IMG/VR virus record: IMGVR_UViG_3300033186_000014
Span: 1 to 48,314 of that record
DNA from: a virus
Length of the DNA: 48,314 nucleotides
Reading direction: 5' to 3' (one strand)
A program made the position numbers and the translations under genes. The notes under the pieces are model-generated. The model saw only the letters and a program-made list of their open reading frames with translations. It searched no databases and was not told the DNA's origin. Positions 80-48,314 of this stretch are shown here, in pieces (the stretch's first letter is position 1; each line of letters begins with the position of its first letter).

Positions 80-504
80 TTCTGATCGATCATCAGGTTG
101 AACTGATGTCCCCAACGCGATTGAAACCAATCAGACTGGATCAATCGCCTGGTCTTGATGTTGTCCCTGATTGCCAGAGGCTCTTTGTAGGACGTGGCCA
201 CCGTACGAAGGTGAGGCAGATTCCTTGGGCCCCATTCCCACGAAGGCCAAAAGACGCCGACCGTCAGTGACTTCATCGTGCCAGGAGGAACATTGATGAT
301 CAGTCGATTAATTTGCCCGTCTGTGATTGCCCCCAAATGGTCTGACATCGCATCGATGTGCCAACCATGAACATAGGCTCTGCCCGGCTCAAGATTGTGC
401 CAAGCCGCCTTGATGTAAACTGACAGCGCCCCCTCGGCTTCCCTTCTCTGTTTCTCCGCTCTGATTGCCTGCAGAAGCCCCGAGTTTGACAAGTGCACGT
501 TCAA
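1..504 (-). CDS. terL: Terminase large subunit, N-terminal part (continues at 48235 after removing the overlap)
   Basis: Minus frame is open from the window edge to an upstream TAG at 511-513. Candidate starts are TTG 504, GTG 498 and TTG 492; there is no ATG. Translation ..VYIKAAWHNLEPGRAYVHGWHIDAMSDHLGAITDGQINRLIINVPPGTMKS.. joins in frame to ORF 47135..48286. Confidence 0.85.
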   Translation of the reverse strand, partial: MNVHLSNSGLLQAIRAEKQRREAEGALSVYIKAAWHNLEPGRAYVHGWHIDAMSDHLGAITDGQINRLIINVPPGTMKSLTVGVFWPSWEWGPRNLPHLRTVATSYKEPLAIRDNIKTRRLIQSDWFQSRWGHQFNLMIDQNATRKFENDHMGFRAAMSFKSLTGERG

Positions 505-910
505 GAGCGTCTAACTCCTCGTCTTCCATTCCTGCAAGCTTTGAGATATCGAGCGTTTGAACTGGCCCACCATCCTTCCCTGAATGCTCGTGCTTTGCTG
601 GAGCGTAACTACCCTGCATTTTGTTGGCCTCAGAGATGGCTGAGATTGCCGTCTTAGGTTCTTCTGCCTTCGTGGCATCATGGATCTCTTTAAGAGCTAT
701 AAGCCTCTCAGCGGCGCTCCATTCAGCTTTTTCAGACACTTTCGCGCGGATTTCCGCCACTCTTTTCACAATGACTTCATTTGACTTCAAGCGCGTCGCA
801 TTGCCGTGGTTTTTGGTGTAGCCAGCTTGGGCTTGTGCTTCGTCGGCTGTCTTCCCAGCCGCGATTGCTTGAGCGAAAGCCTCTCTCTTAGCATTCTTTA
901 GAACTGGCAT
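389..910 (-). CDS. terS: Terminase small subunit
   Basis: N-terminus MPVLKNAKREAFAQAIAAGKTADEAQAQAGYTKNHGNATRLKSNEVIVKRV is typical of the phage small-terminase HTH region. It lies immediately upstream of and overlapping terL. Confidence 0.8.
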   Translation of the reverse strand: MPVLKNAKREAFAQAIAAGKTADEAQAQAGYTKNHGNATRLKSNEVIVKRVAEIRAKVSEKAEWSAAERLIALKEIHDATKAEEPKTAISAISEANKMQGSYAPAKHEHSGKDGGPVQTLDISKLAGMEDEELDALERALVKLGASAGNQSGETEKGSRGGAVSLHQGGLAQS

Positions 911-1084: not shown

Positions 1085-1546
1085 TTAGGACGCCAAAGGA
1101 CTGGGATATTCGCGGGCTGAGAACCCGATTGCGCGTGGGTCGCCTTGAACTCCGCCATTACCAAACGAAACCCACATGGTTGAATGCGTGATATCAATAA
1201 ACCTAACCGGGTCGTCTATCCGCCATTCAGTGTTCTCGGAGCCATATGCATTACTACCCGCAGTAGGACCCCATACAAACCCGAAATCATCAGATTCGGA
1301 AGCATCGGCCAGAACTTCCAGTCGCAGGGAATTACCAACAGTTAAGCCAGTTAGCTGTTGTGCCACATAGTTCTGAGTAACGTCACCAATAAATGTGACC
1401 TCACCCGCATTTTCAGTCACATTCCCGGCAACCGTCCACCCCGCAAGCCCATCGCTAAAATCACTATTTGTTATTAGCTCCGTTCCGTGGCCATTACCGC
1501 GAGGCTGCAAAACAGATGCGCTAAGGCTCAAGCCTAATTCCAGCAT
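1085..1546 (-). CDS. Protein with a CBM4/9-like (galactose-binding-like) beta-sandwich signature
   Basis: ELITNSDFSDGLAGWTVAGNVTENAGEVTF... matches the N-x-F-x-x-G-x-x-x-W opening typical of CBM_4_9 modules. SD GAGGGA lies upstream of the ATG. Confidence 0.55.
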   Translation of the reverse strand: MLELGLSLSASVLQPRGNGHGTELITNSDFSDGLAGWTVAGNVTENAGEVTFIGDVTQNYVAQQLTGLTVGNSLRLEVLADASESDDFGFVWGPTAGSNAYGSENTEWRIDDPVRFIDITHSTMWVSFGNGGVQGDPRAIGFSAREYPSPLAS

Positions 1547-1711
1547 GTTATTCTATTTCCCTCGACTCTAGGCTTGTTCATTTCGCAAACTTTTTTCAGA
1601 TTTGCTGTTGACTTTCATCAGACTTTGTCTTGAGCGCTCAAAATTGCTTGATGATTTAGCCCATAATTTAGAGGCCGCACCATAGGCTTGCTCACCTCCC
1701 CCCGCACACAG

Positions 1712-1739
1712 AAAAAGGGCCGCTCCGAAAAGCTGCCCC
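1712..1739 (-). terminator. Intrinsic terminator in the late-operon leader
   Basis: Minus strand reads GGGCAGCUU-UUCG-GAGCGGCCC (9-bp stem, one mismatch, UUCG loop) followed by UUUUUCUGUG. Confidence 0.6.
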
Positions 1740-1774
1740 TTAATCCTTGCTGTTTGGCCTGATTCCTGGATTGG

Positions 1775-1984
1775 TCAGCACCCTGTTTTAACGTCCTCCA
1801 CAGCACGGACGGTTGTATTAGTTTTAGGAGCACCGCTCCTTACATTTCGCGAAGCTGTATGCAACCGATAAGGCTTGGCCTCACCTTTTGCGACGTCGAT
1901 TGCTTCTTTAAGACCTGCTTTGATTTGTTTAAACGCGCTTTTAGACAAAGCTTCGCACTCCACCTCACTGAGAATGGGGGTCAC
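1775..1984 (-). pseudogene. Possible relic of a HigA/XRE-type antitoxin (N-terminal segment only)
   Basis: A GTG at 1984 overlaps (GTGA) the stop of a 28-aa ORF at 1981-2067. SKSAFKQIKAGLKEAIDVAKGEAKPYRLH resembles the N-terminal leader of HTH antitoxins, but no HTH follows. Confidence 0.2.
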
Positions 1985-2074
1985 CAATAACGCAATCTGT
2001 GCGCCTTCTGGCTGTAGCGTGCGCGTCGGTCGGCTTCCTGCTCCAACGGGTCCACGAACCGCCACATTTCAATT

Positions 2075-2096
2075 TCAAAGTCCTAAAGGACTTTGG
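2075..2096. promoter_or_regulatory. Perfect 20-bp palindrome overlapping the stop codon of the NusG-like gene
   Basis: CAAAGTCCT-aa-AGGACTTTG (9-bp arms). Confidence 0.4.
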
Positions 2097-2751
2097 CCAA
2101 ATTGTCAAGACTGACTTTCATCTCCTGATCTCGACCGAACAGCGTTGTAACAACCCTTGCGTCCCTCTTACCCAGCTCGCTAACCTTGACAAAAAAGCCT
2201 TCGAAAGACCCCTCAAGGATTTGCACCTCGTCTCCAACAGTGAAATCTGGTGTTGCTCTGTCTTCGTCTGGCGTAAATGTTTGATAATTGCTGTCGATCC
2301 AGCTAGCCATTTCATCGCCGCTTAGCGATTTGATCCGGCCTGACTGGCCCGGCGGGCTCAAAAACCCGCGAACAAATGACTGGCTACGGTAGATCGAAAG
2401 CCAATTCTGGAATCCAGCAGGCAGACCGACAAAGACCCACCCAGGCCATTCTGGGTATGCCTTGCGCTGCCGTGATTTTGTGTATCGGCTCAATTTCTGA
2501 TAGCGCGTCCCCAATGGCAAATATGCGCTAAACCCCAGTTCGACCATGGCTCGCTGTGCATTGTAATATTTGCGTCCGCCGGGGCTAAACCGCCCGATAG
2601 CCCACAACGTGCCATCGTCGGCCATTTCAGCTTGTGCAGCCTTGTTATAAATTCTCGCTCGCCGCTCTTGTGCCTCTTCTCTTCGGGCAAACTTGTTTTC
2701 GCGCTCCATCTGTCGCTGGATTCGGAGTTCTGCTCCATATCGCTCTTTCAT
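2083..2751 (-). CDS. NusG/RfaH-like transcription factor (NGN-like region plus KOW)
   Basis: C-terminal VGDEVQILEGSFEGFFVKVSELGKRDARVVTTLFGRDQEMKVSLDNL is a KOW motif. The central LWAIGRF..GFSAYLPL..WPGWVFVGL..VRGFL is NGN-like. It is the last early gene before the packaging genes. Confidence 0.7.
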   Translation of the reverse strand: MKERYGAELRIQRQMERENKFARREEAQERRARIYNKAAQAEMADDGTLWAIGRFSPGGRKYYNAQRAMVELGFSAYLPLGTRYQKLSRYTKSRQRKAYPEWPGWVFVGLPAGFQNWLSIYRSQSFVRGFLSPPGQSGRIKSLSGDEMASWIDSNYQTFTPDEDRATPDFTVGDEVQILEGSFEGFFVKVSELGKRDARVVTTLFGRDQEMKVSLDNLAKVL

Positions 2752-2798: not shown

Positions 2799-3068
2799 TT
2801 ATGCTGCCTGCCCTGCAAGTGGGATTTCAATGGCATATGCTTCCTGCCAAACGTCGGCATGGTAGGCTTTGACTGTGCCGTAGTTGGCATCAAACACGTC
2901 AATTGGAGGCAGTCCCATGTCTTTCGACGCCTGCTTTAGCTCACGCCAATTGAATTGCTGGCCGTGATAGAGCATCGACATGCGCTTGACAGATGCATAT
3001 TGCTGCGACTGGTCAAGCTCACGTTCAAGTTTGTTTGCCTTGCGTGTTGCAGCACTGGCCGTTGCCAT
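2799..3068 (-). CDS. Hypothetical protein (or a C-terminal domain of AntA reached by a -1 shift)
   Basis: 89-aa ORF with protein-like sequence (..YASVKRMSMLYHGQQFNWRELKQASKDMGLPPIDVFDANYGTVKAYH..). Its frame is open upstream to about 3142 and overlaps the AntA ORF tail by 133 nt. Confidence 0.5.
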   Translation of the reverse strand: MATASAATRKANKLERELDQSQQYASVKRMSMLYHGQQFNWRELKQASKDMGLPPIDVFDANYGTVKAYHADVWQEAYAIEIPLAGQAA

Positions 3069-3442
3069 GGCCGTCGCTTCCCGGCGTGATCCGATTTCGG
3101 CTTTGGTGGCAATTGCTCTGCGGACTTGGCCCTGCGCTCGCAGTCAATAAAATATTGTCGCGCTTGCTTCCCTTTTACGTTACGCTCGACCATGGAAAGC
3201 TCTTTGGCCATGTCAAGCGTCAAAAAATACTCAATGCGCGTGGCGTTGTTGGCTTCCATTTTTTCGTGGAAGCGAACGAAGTCAGATCCTTCAACAAAAC
3301 CGTACTGATCAATTCGGGCCTTAACCCACGTTGAGAAGTCTTGACCGCTCTCCAAGAACGCATGAAGTTCACGCGCATTGACTGTCTGGATTTGATCGTC
3401 ACCAATATTATTCATTTCAATTGAAATAAGATCATTCATCAC
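2936..3442 (-). CDS. AntA/AntB-type antirepressor domain protein
   Basis: QTVNARELHAFLESGQDFSTWVKARIDQYGFVEGSDF...YFLTLDMAKELSMVERNVKGKQARQYFIDCERR matches the AntA domain pattern. The last ~55 aa look non-protein-like. Confidence 0.75.
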   Translation of the reverse strand: MMNDLISIEMNNIGDDQIQTVNARELHAFLESGQDFSTWVKARIDQYGFVEGSDFVRFHEKMEANNATRIEYFLTLDMAKELSMVERNVKGKQARQYFIDCERRAKSAEQLPPKPKSDHAGKRRPWQRPVLQHARQTNLNVSLTSRSNMHLSSACRCSITASNSIGVS

Positions 3443-4142: not shown

Positions 4143-4484
4143 GGCTTGAACTCCGTATGTGATCCAAACCCGGAGCCGAAACGCCAATTTCGGGTGACCG
4201 GGCAATATAGAATTGGCGTTACCATCACACGGAATGGCGCACTTTCGTGCTCCTATACGCCCGGCCATAGAAAATGGAAAACCACGCACATGAATGCATG
4301 GCGCGGTTGAGCGCCGTATGACAGAAGGGACGCCAATCCCCGCATGTCCTTTTTCGACATGCTGGCCGCAAGTGCGGTTACCGTCAAAGGTGCGCTGATT
4401 TGTAGATTTTGTCAATCCTTCGAAATTCGGACTCGACTCTTGCGTGCGAACGAGTAGCCTGAAACCAAACTTGAAGGGATCGAA

Positions 4485-4925
4485 ATGAAAGCCATTGTCA
4501 TTATCTTGGCCACCATGATCTTGGCTAGCTGCGCACAAAATTCTTTGAATGTTTACGAGCTTCCGCCAGAAAAAAACAAGCCATATGACAAAGTGGTTAT
4601 GCTGAACAAAAAACAACTGGCTTTCGTCAAAAAGGGCATTGCAGCAGGCTTGAAAGACCCTAACTCTGCGCTTTTCGGCGACATGGTCACCTTCCAAGAT
4701 CAAAATGGCGTTTTGCGCGTTTGCGGTTACGTCAATGGCCGCAACAGCTTTGGCGGCTACACGGGCATGCAGCCTTTCCTTGCGGTTTACGTCCCTTCTG
4801 AAAACTATGTCAATTTGGTCCGTGTCGGAAGCACACCGATTGAGCGAGCCAGCATTTCCAAGGTCTGCCTGAAAAACACAAAGGCAGGTGAACCACTGCC
4901 CACCTTTAAACCCGGCCCAAGTTAA
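4485..4925 (+). CDS. Lipoprotein, opposite-strand moron within the early-right operon
   Basis: Signal peptide MKAIVIILATMILASC with lipobox LASC. SD AAGGGA. Locally AT-richer, preceded by ~340 bp of non-coding DNA. Confidence 0.8.
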   Translation: MKAIVIILATMILASCAQNSLNVYELPPEKNKPYDKVVMLNKKQLAFVKKGIAAGLKDPNSALFGDMVTFQDQNGVLRVCGYVNGRNSFGGYTGMQPFLAVYVPSENYVNLVRVGSTPIERASISKVCLKNTKAGEPLPTFKPGPS

Positions 4926-7062: not shown

Positions 7063-7794
7063 TCAGTTCTCGGCCAGTGCGGCCTTAATGTGATCCGCAG
7101 CCTCTTTCAAAACCGCCTTTGCTTTCATGTCTTCTTCAACGTCTGGATGATCTAGATCGGCCTTAGCGCGAATGTCCGCATTGACCTTCTCAACCCATGC
7201 CGCGCGTTCTTGTGCGGTCAGTTCTGGACCCTTAGATTCTGGCGGCTTGATGTTTTTCAGACGATCAATCAGGATTGTGCGTTGGCTCAAAAGCGCGTCG
7301 GCTTCGGCCTTCATATCGTGCCAGCTTGGAAACCATTTCCACGTCTTTTCAAGCAGCAAAAACCGCACGATATCGGACGGGTAACCAGCAAGCCGCGTCG
7401 CGTATGATTGCAGGCTCACGCGGTGCCCAAGTTCGCTATCGCCACGCCTCGCGCAAATCGAATGAAGCTCAACAAGCCAGTTCTCAATCCGGTCAAACTC
7501 GGCAGGGGCAAGCATCAGTTCAATTTCACTTGCCAACTTCTCAGCATTCTCAACAGCGCCACCAAGCCGGAGCCCGTTACAAATCCAACGCGATCCACCT
7601 TGCTTCGGAAACTCACTCCGGCCCGTCAGTTCAAACCGGATCCCGTAGCTCGCCGCAATTTCCTTGATCCGGTTTCCAACCTTCCGAGGGGTTTGAGTGA
7701 CAAGCCATTCTGCAACCTGCTCGGATTTCCGCTGGTCCACCATCTGACAATTTTCAGCCACCACAACGGGCAAAGCGTCTACAAGCTGTCTCAT
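7063..7794 (-). CDS. Hypothetical replication-module protein
   Basis: ATGA overlap with the DUF1376 gene. No recognisable NTPase motif. Confidence 0.6.
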   Translation of the reverse strand: MRQLVDALPVVVAENCQMVDQRKSEQVAEWLVTQTPRKVGNRIKEIAASYGIRFELTGRSEFPKQGGSRWICNGLRLGGAVENAEKLASEIELMLAPAEFDRIENWLVELHSICARRGDSELGHRVSLQSYATRLAGYPSDIVRFLLLEKTWKWFPSWHDMKAEADALLSQRTILIDRLKNIKPPESKGPELTAQERAAWVEKVNADIRAKADLDHPDVEEDMKAKAVLKEAADHIKAALAEN

Positions 7795-8648
7795 TCCGCT
7801 GACTTTCCAAGTTGATCTGCCCACGGGTCTGGGACCAAGGTTAAATTCGGAGCAGTACGCCCCGCTCTGCTGGCCCTGTTGGCGACCGCGGCGTCAGCGA
7901 ATGACGAGGGCCCACGGTTCTGGCTTGGCGATGACGCCCCTGACCTCTCCAGCCATTCAGGCTCAACGGATTTCCAGCCGCGCAAAATCATTTCATTCGC
8001 CGCAAGGACTGGATCAGGACATTTTTGGAGACGGTTCACCAGCCCCGTTGCTGCTCGTGGCGTATTCGGTGCCTTGAGTTTCGTTCGGTGCTTGGCAATG
8101 TCGTTTGCAAGCTCGTCACCGAGGATTGGCACAAGCGCTTCAACAAAAATTTGGCGATCAGATTTAGGCTTCAAAACAACAGAAGCCGAAGGCGTCTTTT
8201 TGGATATATCGTTAGATATATCTTTTTCTATATTTGGCTTTGGTTTTGGTTGGCATCCTTCGGGCATATGCCCCAGCGATGCGTCCGCATTGTCACTGCC
8301 ATTGTTTTTATTGTCTTTTTTATCCCATCGCGACTGTGCTGCAGCTTTCGCTTTCTCACTTTTTCCTGTCACGTTTTTGATCTCTTTTTCGGCCCGTTCG
8401 TTGGTGATGCGCCCTTCCCGCTCAACAATTTTCCCTTCGGAAATGAGGTATTCGAGCGCCTTTACAAACTTCGCCTTGCTGCCACACCCGCAGAGCCTTG
8501 CAAGCCGGTTGTCGTCCCGCTCGATAGGCCCGGCCATCTCGTAAATGCGAGCAACCAAAGTGATATAGACACCGGTTTCCTCGGCACTAAGCCCACGTGT
8601 TCCAGCAAGCCAGTCAGACGGGTAAAACGGGACGTGGACGATGCTCAT
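7791..8648 (-). CDS. DUF1376 (YdaU-like) replication-associated protein
   Basis: VPFYPSDWLAGTRGLSAEETGVYITLVARIYEMAGPIERDDNRLARLCGC is the characteristic DUF1376 N-terminus. SD GGGGG. Confidence 0.7.
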   Translation of the reverse strand: MSIVHVPFYPSDWLAGTRGLSAEETGVYITLVARIYEMAGPIERDDNRLARLCGCGSKAKFVKALEYLISEGKIVEREGRITNERAEKEIKNVTGKSEKAKAAAQSRWDKKDNKNNGSDNADASLGHMPEGCQPKPKPNIEKDISNDISKKTPSASVVLKPKSDRQIFVEALVPILGDELANDIAKHRTKLKAPNTPRAATGLVNRLQKCPDPVLAANEMILRGWKSVEPEWLERSGASSPSQNRGPSSFADAAVANRASRAGRTAPNLTLVPDPWADQLGKSAE

Positions 8649-8649
8649 A

Positions 8650-9135
8650 TCACCCCCTCACGTCCGCCAGCGAGCGGCGCAGGGCTTCCAGCGCGGTCAT
8701 CTGGCTGTCGATCTGCTTCTTAAGGGTTTGTGCTTCTTTCGGGGTGACCTTGCCGTCTTCCAGCGCATCAGCAACCGTTGCAGTAAAAGCACCGCAAGAG
8801 CCAAGCGCATGGATGCAGGCCGGGACCGGGGCTTCCTCTTTCGTGCATTCAATTTTCTGCACGCTGTAGCCTAGAACCTTCAAAAGCGAGGCTGCAATAA
8901 CGGGCTCTTGGCCCAAATCTTCAACCAAATGTCGATCAATCGCGACACAGGCCAAAGCAGGCGGGAAAACAGCATCGTTCGGATTGGCCCAGCGATACAA
9001 AAGGCTCGGCTCACGCCCCAGCTCAAACGCTGCGCTTTTGGGCCCGCCACTCCTTTGAAATGCCTCTTTCAAAGCGATGCAAAAATCTTCAACCAGACCG
9101 CTTGCAAGGCTAAAATTTGGATCTTTTTCGGCCAT
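8650..9135 (-). CDS. Regulatory protein, possibly CII (CP76)-like
   Basis: Start taken at ATG 9135 (MAEKDPNF..). It sits between cro and the replication genes. LLYRWANPND...ASLLKVLGY...DGKVTPKEAQTLKKQI loosely recalls phage CII/CP76 proteins. Confidence 0.4.
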   Translation of the reverse strand: MAEKDPNFSLASGLVEDFCIALKEAFQRSGGPKSAAFELGREPSLLYRWANPNDAVFPPALACVAIDRHLVEDLGQEPVIAASLLKVLGYSVQKIECTKEEAPVPACIHALGSCGAFTATVADALEDGKVTPKEAQTLKKQIDSQMTALEALRRSLADVRG

Positions 9136-9217
9136 TATAAAAAGGTCTCTCAATTGTAAATGACTTTTGTACGCATCTGTCCGATACTGAGACCGAAGCC
9201 AAGAGCGTCTAAGCGTT

Positions 9218-9420
9218 GGGGCCGGGCTGCTGGTTTGCTTAAACCCGGCCCCAGTTGGCGGACTTCCCCGGTTCATTTGTCTGCCGGGGTTCATAAGAGC
9301 GGGGACCGATTTGCTGGTTTTATAGGGGTCGGCCCCCGGCTCTAAAGGGTGCGGGACGGCCATTGGAGGGAAACCGCCCCGCTATGGCTGGCCCTGGGAG
9401 GGAGAGGAGCCGCACCAGCC
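9218..9420 (-). promoter_or_regulatory. GC-rich multi-hairpin untranslated region between the cro block and the CII-like gene (nutR/tR1-position analogue)
   Basis: Five stems: 9218-9252 (9 bp), 9266-9289 (6 bp), 9301-9337, 9351-9382 (9 bp) and 9386-9420 (6 bp). The two imperfect stems are G-U wobbles only on the minus-strand RNA. Confidence 0.45.
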
Positions 9421-10039: not shown

Positions 10040-10363
10040 ATGCAAAATGATCGCCCCAGCTCACCAGAAAACATTGCCACACGGCTAGAATGGCTGCGGG
10101 ATTATCACGGCCTGACATGGAAGGAATTTGCTGCCAGCATCAACGCATCGTCAGCAAAGGTCAGTAATTGGATAAATGGCACAGGCCGCCTATCTATTGA
10201 CGGCGCACTTTCAATTCGTGAGATCTATAGAGTTTCGTTGGATTTTTTGTATCTCGGCGATGCGTCATCATTGCCACTTGAAATGCGGAAATCGTGGATA
10301 TTACGAAATGGTGGAAGCATTTCCGAGACGGAAGAAGTTGTCTCGACCGTTAATAGTGACTGA
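10040..10363 (+). CDS. XRE-family repressor (cI analogue) lacking an S24 peptidase domain
   Basis: HTH region LTWKEFAASINASSAKVSNWINGTGRLSIDGALSIREIY. Only 107 aa. Confidence 0.75.
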   Translation: MQNDRPSSPENIATRLEWLRDYHGLTWKEFAASINASSAKVSNWINGTGRLSIDGALSIREIYRVSLDFLYLGDASSLPLEMRKSWILRNGGSISETEEVVSTVNSD

Positions 10364-15087: not shown

Positions 15088-15351
15088 ATGACGCAGTGCT
15101 TGACAATTCCGGCGAATGGGTTCACTGTTGATCCAGCAACGGCAAAATCCGTTGCCGGGATTTGCACCCCGTCTAACTACAGGCGCTCAAACCGCGCCAG
15201 TTTACCTGTCAGCGGTTTTTCTTATGGTCGGGCGTTCGGAGCCACCTCGTGTGGGCCGTTTCCTGTAGGCGGTAGTGCAAACTCCGTTCGTCCGATCACC
15301 CGAGATTTGCACCTCCGTGGTCGGTTCATCAGTCGACTACAGGAAGTGATC
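15088..15351 (+). other. Structured, probably non-coding 264-bp segment (candidate sRNA or leader) with internal repeats
   Basis: TTGACA (15100-15105), 17-bp spacer, CACTGT. Hairpin GCAACGG/CCGTTGC at 15136-15155. Stem AAACCGC/GCGGTTT plus a T-run at 15189-15224. Repeats GATTTGCACC (15159, 15304) and CTACAGG (15177, 15337). The in-frame translation is S/R/G/P-rich and not protein-like. Confidence 0.35.
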
Positions 15352-15936
15352 ATGAGCACGATTCTATCTATTTCCGATATCAATACTCAGATTAACGGCC
15401 AGCCGCGCATGCTAGATATTAGGCTTGCGGAGGCTTTGGGCTTTTCGCGTCCTCGTAAAATCAGGGACGTCATTTCTCGCCACTTGGAAGCTCTTGAAAG
15501 GCTTGGCGAAGTAGTTTGCCCCACTTCGGTGCAAACCCCAAAAGGCGGACGCCCCGGCAAGGAATACTGGCTGACCAAAAAGCAAGCCCTTTACCTCTGC
15601 ACCAAGTCAGAGACCGCCAACGCAACCGAAGTCACCATTCAAATGGTTGAAGTCTTCGACGCGGTCACCAATGGCAAGATGCCTCCATCTGTTGAGACAA
15701 TGGTTCAGTCCATCAAGGCAGGGTCGCGCCTTACAGACGCCTACAGCTTTCTTGATAACGCGCTGGAAGCCCTGCAACAGGGCGATGTGGCTTGGTTCTA
15801 TTTCTACATCGAAATGTCAAAGCGCCTAATCGACGCTGAACGGGCCTGTCAAACCCGCCCCATCACCCTCCATTACTTAAGATCCCTGATTGAACAAGAT
15901 CGCGCACCAACAAAAAAGATTGGAGCAGGCAAATGA
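15352..15936 (+). CDS. Phage regulatory protein, Rha/antirepressor-like winged helix
   Basis: ATG 15352 follows AGGAAG. PRMLDIRLAEALGFSRPRKIRDVISRHLEALERLGEV...GGRPGKEYWLTKKQALYLCTKSETANA. Confidence 0.5.
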   Translation: MSTILSISDINTQINGQPRMLDIRLAEALGFSRPRKIRDVISRHLEALERLGEVVCPTSVQTPKGGRPGKEYWLTKKQALYLCTKSETANATEVTIQMVEVFDAVTNGKMPPSVETMVQSIKAGSRLTDAYSFLDNALEALQQGDVAWFYFYIEMSKRLIDAERACQTRPITLHYLRSLIEQDRAPTKKIGAGK

Positions 15937-30324: not shown

Positions 30325-30348
30325 AAAAAAGCCGCCATAAGGCAGCTT
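30325..30348 (-). terminator. Intrinsic terminator between the J-like and tail fibre genes
   Basis: Minus strand reads AAGCUGCC-uuau-GGCGGCUU (one G-U pair) followed by UUUUAGUG; the run of six T supplies the last two stem bases and the tract. Confidence 0.6.
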
Positions 30349-36172: not shown

Positions 36173-36201
36173 AAAAAGGCCCCTCACCGAAATGAAGAGC
36201 C
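36173..36201 (-). terminator. Intrinsic terminator between the antirepressor and tape measure genes
   Basis: Minus strand reads GGCUCUUCA-uuucgg-UGAGGGGCC (7/9 pairs) followed by UUUUUCUAU, directly before the tape-measure SD. Confidence 0.5.
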
Positions 36202-36229
36202 TTTGTACTGGTTTAAATTGTTGTTGGCT

Positions 36230-45628: not shown

Positions 45629-45653
45629 GAAAAAGGCCCGCTTTAAGCGAGCC
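45629..45653 (-). terminator. Intrinsic terminator between the portal and scaffold genes
   Basis: Minus strand reads GGCUCGC-uuaaa-GCGGGCC (one G-U pair) followed by UUUUUCAUG. Confidence 0.6.
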
Positions 45654-47135: not shown

Positions 47136-48314
47136 TATCTAGCCGTTCCTGAATATGTGCCTACAAGGGCCGTTGGCGCGTTTCTGCTGGCAAGCTCATT
47201 GAATGCTCTAGCAGAGGCGTCCACGATGTCTTTAAGTTTGCCGCTTGGGAAGACCTCAATCTCATCAAGAAAGCCTTCGTTCCAAGCTCCTTTTAGCAAC
47301 ATCACGTTGCCCGCTTCGCATTGAGCTGCTAAGGGCTCGGCCCTTGTTTCTTTGTCGCCGGTCTCTGGCGTTGCCCGCGCGGTATATCCTTCCAACATAC
47401 CAACAAGTTGCTGCGCTTGGTCCTTGCCCGCCTGGCCGGGATCTTTTGGCATTGAAATCTTGCAAGAATGGCCGTCCTGATCTGCTGTATTTTTAATCAG
47501 CCTGCGAACACCCGCAGGAGATTCCCTCTCGGCTTTGCAATCGGCGACAATGAATTTTCCGTCAGGCGTGCGCCCAATCTTGACACCCGCTGTCCTTGCG
47601 CCTTCCCCGTCTTTGGTTGCGGCTAAGTCCCATCCCCTGACAAACTGCGTCCCAGCTGGCACTGCGTTGACAATCGAGAAGTAGGAGCGTTTGAACATAC
47701 CCCCGCCTCTAGGTGCCGGCCTTTGCTGGTTCTGCCCCGCATGAGCGATCGAGCCTAGAGAAACCTTGTCCCGCTCAACAGCCTGTCGTGAAAACCGCCT
47801 TTCAAAGAGCAGTTCACCATCCTGCGTTCTTGGGTCTTGGTTGTAGACCTTTTTGGGCTTTGCGTTCTCTACGAACTCACGGCGGTTCTCAGGGACTTCA
47901 TCGCCTTCTTTGTACCAAACCTGCTTCTGAGCATCGTATCGCGCTGTGACAGGCTCTCCAGCGTCAAAATGCGTTGGTTTGACCACCGTGTAGCATCGTC
48001 TTTGCGGCTCGAACTCCATGGGAAGCATTAAATGCTCATATCCAAGGCTCTTGGCCAGCGCTACGCCTGTCGTGTCTTCCTCATTCAGGCGCTGCATCAC
48101 CATGACGATCGCCGACTTATCGGGATCGGTCAAACGGCTTGGAACGGCTTCAAGGAATGTTTCCTTTGCTGTCAATCGATCTGCGTCGGACTTGGCCTGA
48201 TCAACGGATAGGGGGTCATCAATGATCACCCTGTCACCACGCTCACCGGTCAAGGACTTGAACGACATAGCAGCCCGAAAGCCCATGTGGTCGTTCTCGA
48301 ACTTCCTTGTCGCG
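47135..48314 (-). CDS. terL: Terminase large subunit, C-terminal part (nuclease domain); continues from 1..504
   Basis: ..GERGDRVIIDDPLSVDQAKSDADR.. (Walker-B-like) and a C-terminal RNaseH-like region. The frame stays open to the window end. Confidence 0.9.
   Translation of the reverse strand, partial: ATRKFENDHMGFRAAMSFKSLTGERGDRVIIDDPLSVDQAKSDADRLTAKETFLEAVPSRLTDPDKSAIVMVMQRLNEEDTTGVALAKSLGYEHLMLPMEFEPQRRCYTVVKPTHFDAGEPVTARYDAQKQVWYKEGDEVPENRREFVENAKPKKVYNQDPRTQDGELLFERRFSRQAVERDKVSLGSIAHAGQNQQRPAPRGGGMFKRSYFSIVNAVPAGTQFVRGWDLAATKDGEGARTAGVKIGRTPDGKFIVADCKAERESPAGVRRLIKNTADQDGHSCKISMPKDPGQAGKDQAQQLVGMLEGYTARATPETGDKETRAEPLAAQCEAGNVMLLKGAWNEGFLDEIEVFPSGKLKDIVDASARAFNELASRNAPTALVGTYSGTAR
48236..48314. 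repeat. Terminal direct repeat (copy 2), circular-closure overlap
   Basis: Exact 79/79 match to bases 1-79. Confidence 0.95.

Follow-up and report, generated by a model that had tools for sequence, protein, structure and literature searches.

A NusG-family protein encoded ahead of the terminase genes of a phage and its possible role in late-gene antitermination

What switches on the late genes of the phage genome in IMG/VR virus record IMGVR_UViG_3300033186_000014? The whole stretch of DNA analysed, called the window below, comprises positions 1 to 48,314 of that record and has a 79-bp direct repeat at its two ends (1-79 and 48236-48314). It is therefore a circular assembly and a complete phage genome of 48,235 bp. 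Phage late-gene control is known to occur through Q-, N-, put-, P7- and gp39-type factors, and specialised NusG paralogues (RfaH, LoaP and UpxY) have been described in cellular operons and on plasmids. Of the window open reading frames (ORFs) that were scanned, none was recognised as encoding a Q- or N-type protein, nor was there a Q-like match. An earlier note on this DNA proposed that the minus-strand ORF at 2083-2751 encodes a NusG/RfaH paralogue in the position of lambda Q, and that this protein switches on the late genes. In our analysis, the note's observation was largely confirmed and its interpretation was partly supported. We consider it reasonably probable that the NusG paralogue switches on the late genes by antitermination, and that it loads during transcription of the leader adjacent to its gene. 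In the literature, phage NusG paralogues receive passing mentions, and no functional or experimental study was found; a paper on Helicobacter prophages offers the speculation that late and lysis genes are controlled by a NusG-like protein (PMC11321410). The present analysis adds a specific candidate for the recruitment region and shows that the module containing it recurs.

Sequence profiles weakly placed the 222-aa product of the ORF in the NusG family. Pfam NusG (PF02357) was matched at E=9e-4 and 20.1 bits, which just missed the gathering cut-off of 22.2, and Pfam KOW was matched at E=0.014 at aa 172-193, just under its gathering cut-off. The match to PHROG 6386, 'transcription antiterminator', was full-length, with residues 45-221 aligned to profile positions 10-179 of 179 (E 8.5e-12). 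TIGR00922, the NCBIfam nusG model, was matched at E 6.5e-8, and the best PDB match by sequence was T. maritima NusG (9e-7). These matches bear out the NGN-like core and the KOW motif that the earlier note had read in this ORF. Judged by its profile matches, the protein is a member of PHROG 6386 and a diverged branch of the NusG family. Its identity as a housekeeping NusG, RfaH, LoaP or UpxY was rejected, since the four curated models gave 13-33 bits against cut-offs of 100-145 bits. The scores were 32.6 bits for the housekeeping NusG model TIGR00922 (cut-off 135.7), 13.6 bits for the RfaH model TIGR01955 (144.5), 13.3 bits for the LoaP model NF033641 (125) and 20.4 bits for the UpxY model NF033644 (100).

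The fold of the protein was predicted with AlphaFold2 (AF2). A single-sequence run gave a pLDDT of 39 and was replaced by a run with a 38-sequence alignment as input, which gave 89.7. The AF2 model contains the following parts:

aa 2-43, charged N-terminal helix
aa ~48-130, NGN alpha/beta domain
aa 145-156, linker helix
aa 175-220, KOW beta-barrel of five strands (domain from ~172)

When the model was compared with the PDB using Foldseek, all significant matches were NusG, RfaH or Spt5, with E values down to 4e-10. Target-normalised TM-scores (Foldseek) were 0.56-0.78 for the NGN domain of the model against the NGN domains of RfaH and NusG, and 0.71-0.79 for its KOW domain against the isolated NusG/RfaH KOW domains 2mi6, 1nz9 and 2lcl. 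The best viral matches were uncultured-phage proteins named RfaH or NusG. As modelled, the product of ORF 2083-2751 belongs to the NusG/Spt5 superfamily and combines NGN and KOW domains with an additional helix at the N-terminus. An NGN/KOW structural match was the check that the earlier note had named beforehand, and the match is clear. The charged N-terminal extension of ~45 aa is also real; a single long helix is predicted for it, and the closest subfamily has kept it. AF2 predicted the C-terminal domain in the beta-barrel state alone, a prediction that cannot exclude fold switching.

Word-index searches for homologues produced no more than 2 and 13 proteins, and relatives were instead sought by running a profile exhaustively against 1.84 billion cluster representatives. 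This search yielded 462 relatives at E<1e-3, including 82 at E<1e-10. Pfam NusG (PF02357) was matched by 37 of the 38 closest relatives, the best at 1.7e-12. Close relatives are rare, with one protein 56% identical, on a 2-kb metagenome contig (L001). A tblastn search of 50,697 phage records with the window protein gave no match at 1e-5 and weak matches at E<1, and no relatives were found in viral, genome and metagenome collections by the window protein alone or by an alignment of it with P0002. Distant members are present on IMG/VR contigs, in metagenomes and in prophages of Ochrobactrum, Fulvimarina, Aurantimonas, Rhizobium and Devosia. A tblastn search with one member of the family also led to two cultured phages, Sinorhizobium phage phi3LM21 (p27) and Nostoc phage Nsp-JY10. 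One distant family match, P0158, lies on Bacteroidota-like metagenome scaffolds (L003-L005), where a NusG paralogue heads a polysaccharide biosynthesis locus. Because this is an UpxY-type context, the family profile also reaches cellular paralogues, at low scores.

The family is linked to the terminase genes. In 13 loci, namely phi3LM21, Nsp-JY10 and 11 loci from IMG/VR (L009, L011, L012, L013, L018, L020, L021, L022, L026, L027 and L028), the NusG-like gene is followed on its own strand, after 0.65-2.6 kb, by the gene for the large terminase subunit (terL). The terminases of these loci belong to four families (Terminase_3, GpA, Terminase_6 and TerL_ATPase). Since the NusG-like gene precedes all four, its linkage to the late module has been conserved while the late genes were exchanged. 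The gene, a promoter-like site, a conserved leader and a terminator make up a compact module that is found again in many prophages of Hyphomicrobiales as well as in cultured phages, phi3LM21 among them.

In the window, the module and the genes up to the small terminase subunit gene (terS) are laid out as follows:

2083-2751, minus strand: phage NusG paralogue gene, 222 aa (sequence profiles, AF2 model, Foldseek)
2108-2080, minus strand: promoter-like site, TTGACA-17-TAGGAC, overlapping the 3' end of the gene (read from sequence; layout shared with relatives)
2076-2095, no strand assigned: inverted repeat CAAAGTCCT-TT-AGGACTTTG (9+2+9), in the spacer and -10 of the promoter-like site, covering the stop codon
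2046-2066, minus strand: leader block 1, TGTGGCGGTTCGTGGACCCGT, containing GTGGACCCGT at 2055-2046
2008-2036, minus strand: leader block 2, AAGCCGACCGACGCGCACGCTACAGCCAG, holding GCCGACCG at 2034-2027 and ending in CCAG at 2011-2008
1990-2004, minus strand: leader hairpin GCGCA-CAGAT-TGCGT, between the CCAG and TATTGGT boxes
1983-1989, minus strand: leader box TATTGGT, invariant in five window-type leaders and the counterpart of GGTTYATGKC in the wider family
1775-2065, minus strand: orphan ORF of uncertain status, 96 aa if begun at GTG 2065 or 69 aa if begun at GTG 1984 (1775-1984)
1708-1741, minus strand: intrinsic terminator, AAGGGGCAGCUUUUCGGAGCGGCCCUUU then UUCUGUGU, with a UUCG loop and one A.G mismatch (stem 1741-1714)
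1085-1546, minus strand: ORF of 153 aa without a family match, the first gene past the terminator and before terS, with good coding statistics and a GAGGG ribosome-binding site
389-910, minus strand: terS (PHROG 51 at 9.6e-9), with the large terminase next

The orphan ORF (1775-2065) and the 153-aa ORF (1085-1546) intervene between the NusG-like gene and terS, which makes its description as the last early gene before terS inexact. The stretch of ~530 nt after the gene, which had been taken as a leader, has ORFs inside it and is hence leader in part only.

The promoter-like site has its -35, TTGACA, at 2108-2103 and, after a 17-nt spacer, a -10-like TAGGAC at 2085-2080, the TAG of which is the stop codon of the gene. 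Transcription is predicted to start near 2074-2072. The same arrangement of -35, 17 nt and -10 precedes the conserved leader in relatives, and is kept in four loci (L014, L017, L021 and L027) in which the whole site is located past the end of the ORF. The window and L001 are most alike in nucleotide sequence from -26 to +54 relative to the stop codon, where identity reaches 0.75-0.85, compared to 0.33-0.75 inside the gene, and the promoter-like site falls within this most conserved stretch.

An inverted repeat does lie at the stop codon, as the earlier note had stated, but the perfect 20-bp palindrome given for 2075-2096 is in fact a 9+2+9 repeat at 2076-2095. As a hairpin, it has a dG of -10.8 and a z of -3.3. 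Repeats of the 9+2+9 class number 2 in the genome, with 1.3 expected. The repeat is partly kept in L001, with arms of 6-7 bp, and its left arm doubles as coding sequence for the C-terminus of the protein. It could be an operator or a loading site. Five related loci (L009-L011, L031 and L032) have an inverted repeat, AACTGC-AAA-GCAGTT, in the same place between -35 and -10; such a spacer repeat is not general across related loci.

Downstream of the predicted start lies the window leader (~2073-1983), which we put forward as a candidate recruitment region and conserved non-coding element on the basis of sequence comparison. The earlier note had predicted a recruitment element in this leader without finding one, and a candidate region was now found there. 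The variant seen in the window is shared with four relatives (L001, L038, L039 and L040), whose proteins have the N-terminal helix in common with the window protein; those of L001 and L038 are 56% and 36% identical to it. Among the protein-derived loci, GTGGACCCGT was found only ~25-27 nt past the NusG-like stop codons of L001 and L038, and in L008, which is the window's own second copy. The window and L038 have GTGGACCCGT, the GCGC(A)...CCAG block and TATTGGT in common. GCCGAC and CCRG boxes also occur in Devosia-type leaders, and the wider family has a GAYCCRG box as the equivalent of CCAG (2011-2008). When the leaders of the window and L001 are aligned, they differ by indels of 3, 2 and 4 nt, and the blocks are conserved across them. 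Since these indels shift the frame, there is no conserved peptide in the leader. A leader peptide from a 27-aa ORF starting at ATG 2067 was rejected, the conserved nucleotides being read in different frames in L001.

A hairpin stands between CCAG and TATTGGT in all five window-type leaders. It has 4-6 bp and is built from five different stems (GCGCA/TGCGT, CCTC/GGGG, ACATTC/GAATGT, ATGACC/GGTCGT and GTGCC/GGCGC), and none of 20,000 shuffles reproduced the five-leader hairpin. A more specific version of the proposal is that the nascent leader RNA, not the DNA, recruits the paralogue. The CCAG box, the covarying hairpin and TATTGGT would be the recognition site, and the Arg-rich N-terminal helix (...ERRARIYNKAAQ...), which is conserved in the window's subfamily, would be the RNA-binding arm. 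We hold this version to be doubtful, and the protein could just as well recognise single-stranded DNA within the transcription bubble. If RNA recruitment were true, one small protein would join a lambda-N-like RNA tether and a NusG-like grip on RNA polymerase. The protein and its adjacent leader would then be a self-contained, portable late-gene switch that is widespread in alphaproteobacterial phages.

The pattern CGTGGACCCGT-N(8-30)-GCCGACC had 50 matches in IMG/VR, none of which adjoined a NusG-like gene; as this is chance level, the window-type leader was not found in IMG/VR by that pattern. The core-family box AGGAYGAYC occurs once in the window, in an unrelated place and at chance level. 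Rfam, searched with the window leader at E up to 10, gave nothing beyond a spurious lncRNA match.

The orphan ORF overlaps this leader. It has a positive codon score in its own frame and was called by a gene caller. It had no family match beyond a weak NadS-like stretch, and the 69-aa ORF had no homologue but itself in 5.8e9 proteins. The indels of L001 break the frame of its N-terminal part, and the GTG gives 7 aa only there. Its first 27 codons are unlikely to be coding because they overlap the conserved non-coding leader; the 69-aa version from GTG 1984 is possible.

In the wider family, the leader has a fixed order of elements. A -35 of TTGAnn, a 17-nt spacer and a -10-like hexamer are followed, 5-8 nt on, by [CT]AGGA[CT]GA[CT]C, and then by variable hairpins, GA[CT]CC[AG]G, a hairpin of variable sequence, GG.GGTT[CT]ATG[TG]C and a terminator. 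An nhmmer profile of 17 leaders was run against 456 kb on both strands and matched solely past NusG-like stop codons, on the coding strand, at offsets of +8 to +40, with two at +257 and +786. For a subgroup of seven sequences, RNAalifold predicted 16 pairs, of which 5 show compensatory changes; it gave no consensus for the full set of 21 leaders, and the structure comes from subgroups only. No Rfam match reached the gathering score in the leaders of 15 related loci. The occurrence of one leader variant per protein subfamily suggests co-evolution of factor and site. Motif 3 was considered as a conserved start codon and rejected, as the ORFs from it span 2 to 148 codons and the peptides are unrelated. 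The third leader box, just ahead of the terminator, opens in L014 and L021 (GATGGCGGTTCATG or GATGGCGGTTTATC) with GGCGGT, six bases identical to the beginning of the RfaH ops element. The likeness is weaker in other related loci, which deviate; the window has GATTGCGTTATTGG in place of the GGCGGT-type box.

In relatives, this unit has the anatomy of a small-RNA gene, with a promoter, 100-150 nt of conserved RNA with covarying hairpins and a terminator. It might be read as an independent gene for a structured RNA of ~100-200 nt, which would have a regulatory role of its own, separate from that of the protein, and whose linkage to the NusG-like gene would be syntenic only. This explanation is very unlikely in our view. 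The unit is found solely beside NusG-like genes and changes type along with the protein subfamily, and in the window there is no terminator for about 270 nt after the leader. Moreover, lambda 6S RNA is a precedent for a short RNA that is the terminated product of an antitermination leader.

The same conservation bears on the idea that the protein needs no cis site at all. It could be a general anti-Rho and anti-pausing factor that replaces host NusG on phage DNA and shields untranslated or foreign-looking phage RNA from Rho, with the leader and terminator being an unrelated operon boundary. RfaH and similar NusG paralogues work mainly by keeping NusG and Rho away (reviewed in PMC7819879), the KOW domain is predicted as an ordinary beta-barrel, and the leader is not thermodynamically special. 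A non-coding element is nevertheless kept right after the gene across proteins that are 36-56% identical and across the wider family, and the leader profile matches nowhere else. Also, a free NusG mimic would need no linkage to late genes such as that seen across four terminase families. We therefore judge a factor without a cis site to be unlikely.

The UUCG-loop intrinsic terminator described in the earlier note is real. Its stem at 1741-1714 is followed by a U tract (tail UUUUUC), its dG is -14 to -15.5, and it is the strongest terminator-like site on the minus strand between the NusG-like gene and terS. At least 17 distinct related loci have a canonical intrinsic terminator 100-420 nt past the NusG-like stop codon. 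Three more canonical intrinsic terminators are intergenic in the late operon of the window:

45635-45652, minus strand: GGCTCGCTTAAAGCGGGCC then TTTTCATG
36176-36202, minus strand: dG -16.0
30329-30347, minus strand: dG -12.6

The presence of terminators inside the late operon calls for some form of processive antitermination.

This requirement is relevant to another explanation, in which the terminator at 1741-1714 just ends the early operon and the late genes use their own promoter (in 1711-1547 or beyond) and another activator. The NusG-like protein would then serve in host shut-off, competition with host NusG or superinfection exclusion. There is room for such a promoter in the 165 nt of intergenic DNA between the terminator and the 153-aa ORF, and the many small early ORFs without known function could include an activator. 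The distance of the window terminator from the leader, unlike that in most relatives, also fits. The promoter scan, however, found no promoter-like site on the minus strand in 1547-1711. The 12-bp palindrome that the earlier note had pointed out in this region, at 1630-1641, exists, but such palindromes are at chance level (8 in the genome compared to 11.3 +/- 3.3 expected), and it was discarded. An ordinary end of the early operon would not deal with the terminators inside the late operon, and it leaves the synteny and the conservation of the leader unexplained. We think this explanation improbable.

Late-gene activation by the NusG paralogue would proceed as follows. The phage-specific paralogue would be made from the early-right operon. 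Transcripts that start at the putative promoter TTGACA-17-TAGGAC (2108-2080), which overlaps the last codons of its gene, or that read through from the early operon, would carry a leader of ~90 nt (about 2073-1983). When the factor is absent, transcription would halt at the terminator at 1741-1714. When present, the paralogue would load onto RNA polymerase during transcription of the leader and take the NusG site on the polymerase, which would make it resistant to pausing and termination. The polymerase could then pass the terminator at 1741-1714 and the three further terminators of the ~23-kb late operon. This reading is supported by structure and comparative genomics, and from these we infer promoter activity, loading at the leader and antitermination. 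If confirmed, it would be a third recruitment solution for NusG paralogues and a new class of lambda-Q analogues.

Several observations weigh against late-gene antitermination by this protein. The -10, TAGGAC, agrees with the consensus at 3 of 6 positions, and because of this poor -10, a consensus promoter scan did not report the site at 2108-2080. In many relatives, the TTGA of the -35 is also conserved Leu-Asp/Glu codons and the -10 is also the stop codon; thus, part of the conservation of the 'promoter' could be coding constraint. The folding stability of the whole leader is ordinary (z -0.06 to -0.5). The window-type leader is known from four relatives only, and the family-wide leader profile gives no match in the window, so short boxes and a shared layout are the basis for regarding the window leader as homologous to those of the main family. 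The window terminator lies 342 nt past the stop codon with the orphan ORF in between, compared to a position directly after the leader in most relatives, and it could simply end the early operon.

The overall genome layout is consistent with late-gene control from this position. Three of its genes are placed as follows:

10040-10363, plus strand: repressor
8650-9363, minus strand: CII-like gene
7791-8648, minus strand: O-like replication gene

The plus strand carries the repressor, recombination genes and the integrase. On the minus strand, the order is CII-like, O-like, SSB, methyltransferase, antirepressor, NusG-like gene, terS and terL, and ~23 kb of structural genes follow terL and reach ~25100. 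The large terminase gene runs over the circular junction, and terS and terL are contiguous on a Logan contig. The genome is lambda-like, and 'lambda-Q position' is a fair description of where the NusG-like gene is located. The earlier note's analogy with lambda Q is supported by this layout, the synteny, the terminators and the conserved leader.

Other features of the genome were also observed. Just upstream of the NusG-like start codon is a GC-rich hairpin (2765-2794, dG about -19.7), which lacks a U tract on the minus strand and is followed by a U-rich tail on the plus strand only. It could limit read-through into the NusG-like gene or end antisense transcription. Further upstream, an AntA-domain ORF (2936-3442, minus strand) overlaps the ORF at 2799-3068 by 133 nt. 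The latter matches only the C-terminal third of phrog_4936, and the two ORFs may be a frameshifted or split antirepressor gene. A lipoprotein-like ORF with a signal peptide plus Cys (4485-4925, plus strand) is inserted in the early operon in the reverse orientation. It has terminator-like hairpins of the minus strand on either side (4281-4306 and 4882-4912) and may be a moron. Finally, the plus strand at 15136-15303 matched two Rfam families above the gathering score, isrK with 64.6 bits and C4 antisense RNA with 56 bits. The matched stretch is at the 5' end of an Ant/Rha-like ORF (15088-15936), an arrangement that resembles antisense antirepressor control of the P1/P7 immI type.

How does this system compare with known ones? 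The window protein and RfaH of Enterobacteria are both specialised NusG paralogues that contain NGN and KOW domains, and the Foldseek matches of the window protein include the RfaH-ops complexes 8phk, 5ond and 6c6s. As proposed here, the window protein would also resemble RfaH in loading at a cis element in an operon leader and in suppressing termination over a long, horizontally acquired operon. The two differ in that the C-terminal domain of the window protein is predicted as a beta-barrel, not an alpha-hairpin, and in its extra N-terminal helix of ~45 aa. In addition, the window gene adjoins its presumed target, in contrast to RfaH, which acts in trans on several operons. The ops element GGCGGTAGnnTG, allowing <=2 mismatches, had 31 matches in the genome with 32 expected, and none on the minus (transcribed) strand of the leader. 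The likeness to RfaH drawn in the earlier note does not extend to such details, given that no ops element was found and that the RfaH, LoaP and UpxY models scored far below their cut-offs.

LoaP of Firmicutes and Actinobacteria directs antitermination of polyketide operons that depends on a leader RNA hairpin, and its target leader has a small hairpin and intrinsic terminators. The window protein is likewise a NusG paralogue whose gene adjoins the presumed target operon, the leader here also has a small hairpin, and recruitment through RNA is plausible. The leader sequence, the host range (here, phages of Alphaproteobacteria) and the target (here, phage late genes) are different. UpxY of the Bacteroides capsule operons is also a locus-specific NusG paralogue and is encoded at the head of the operon that it controls; for the window protein, no UpxZ-like partner was evident, and the context is a phage. 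GafZ, from the Caulobacter gene transfer agent, and AlpA, from Pseudomonas, are processive antiterminators that load at a promoter and read through terminators in head-tail clusters (PMC11150451). They share with the proposed factor an alphaproteobacterial or phage-derived origin and processive antitermination, but the proteins are unrelated, and GafZ and AlpA cooperate with host NusG instead of taking its place.

Two genes annotated as 'transcription antitermination protein NusG', phi3LM21 p27 and that of Nsp-JY10, belong to the same family as the window gene (PHROG 6386), precede terS/terL and have the leader-plus-terminator layout. The function given for the phi3LM21 and Nsp-JY10 genes is database annotation only, and the window protein is a diverged branch with its own leader variant. 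The window protein is NusG-like and has no relation in sequence or fold to any Q family. Its locus, however, resembles lambda Q, PR', the 6S leader and tR' in that the last recognisable early-right regulator is followed by a promoter-like site, a leader, a terminator and late genes with terminators of their own. The window's inverted repeat sits between -35 and -10, where the Q-binding element of lambda is found.

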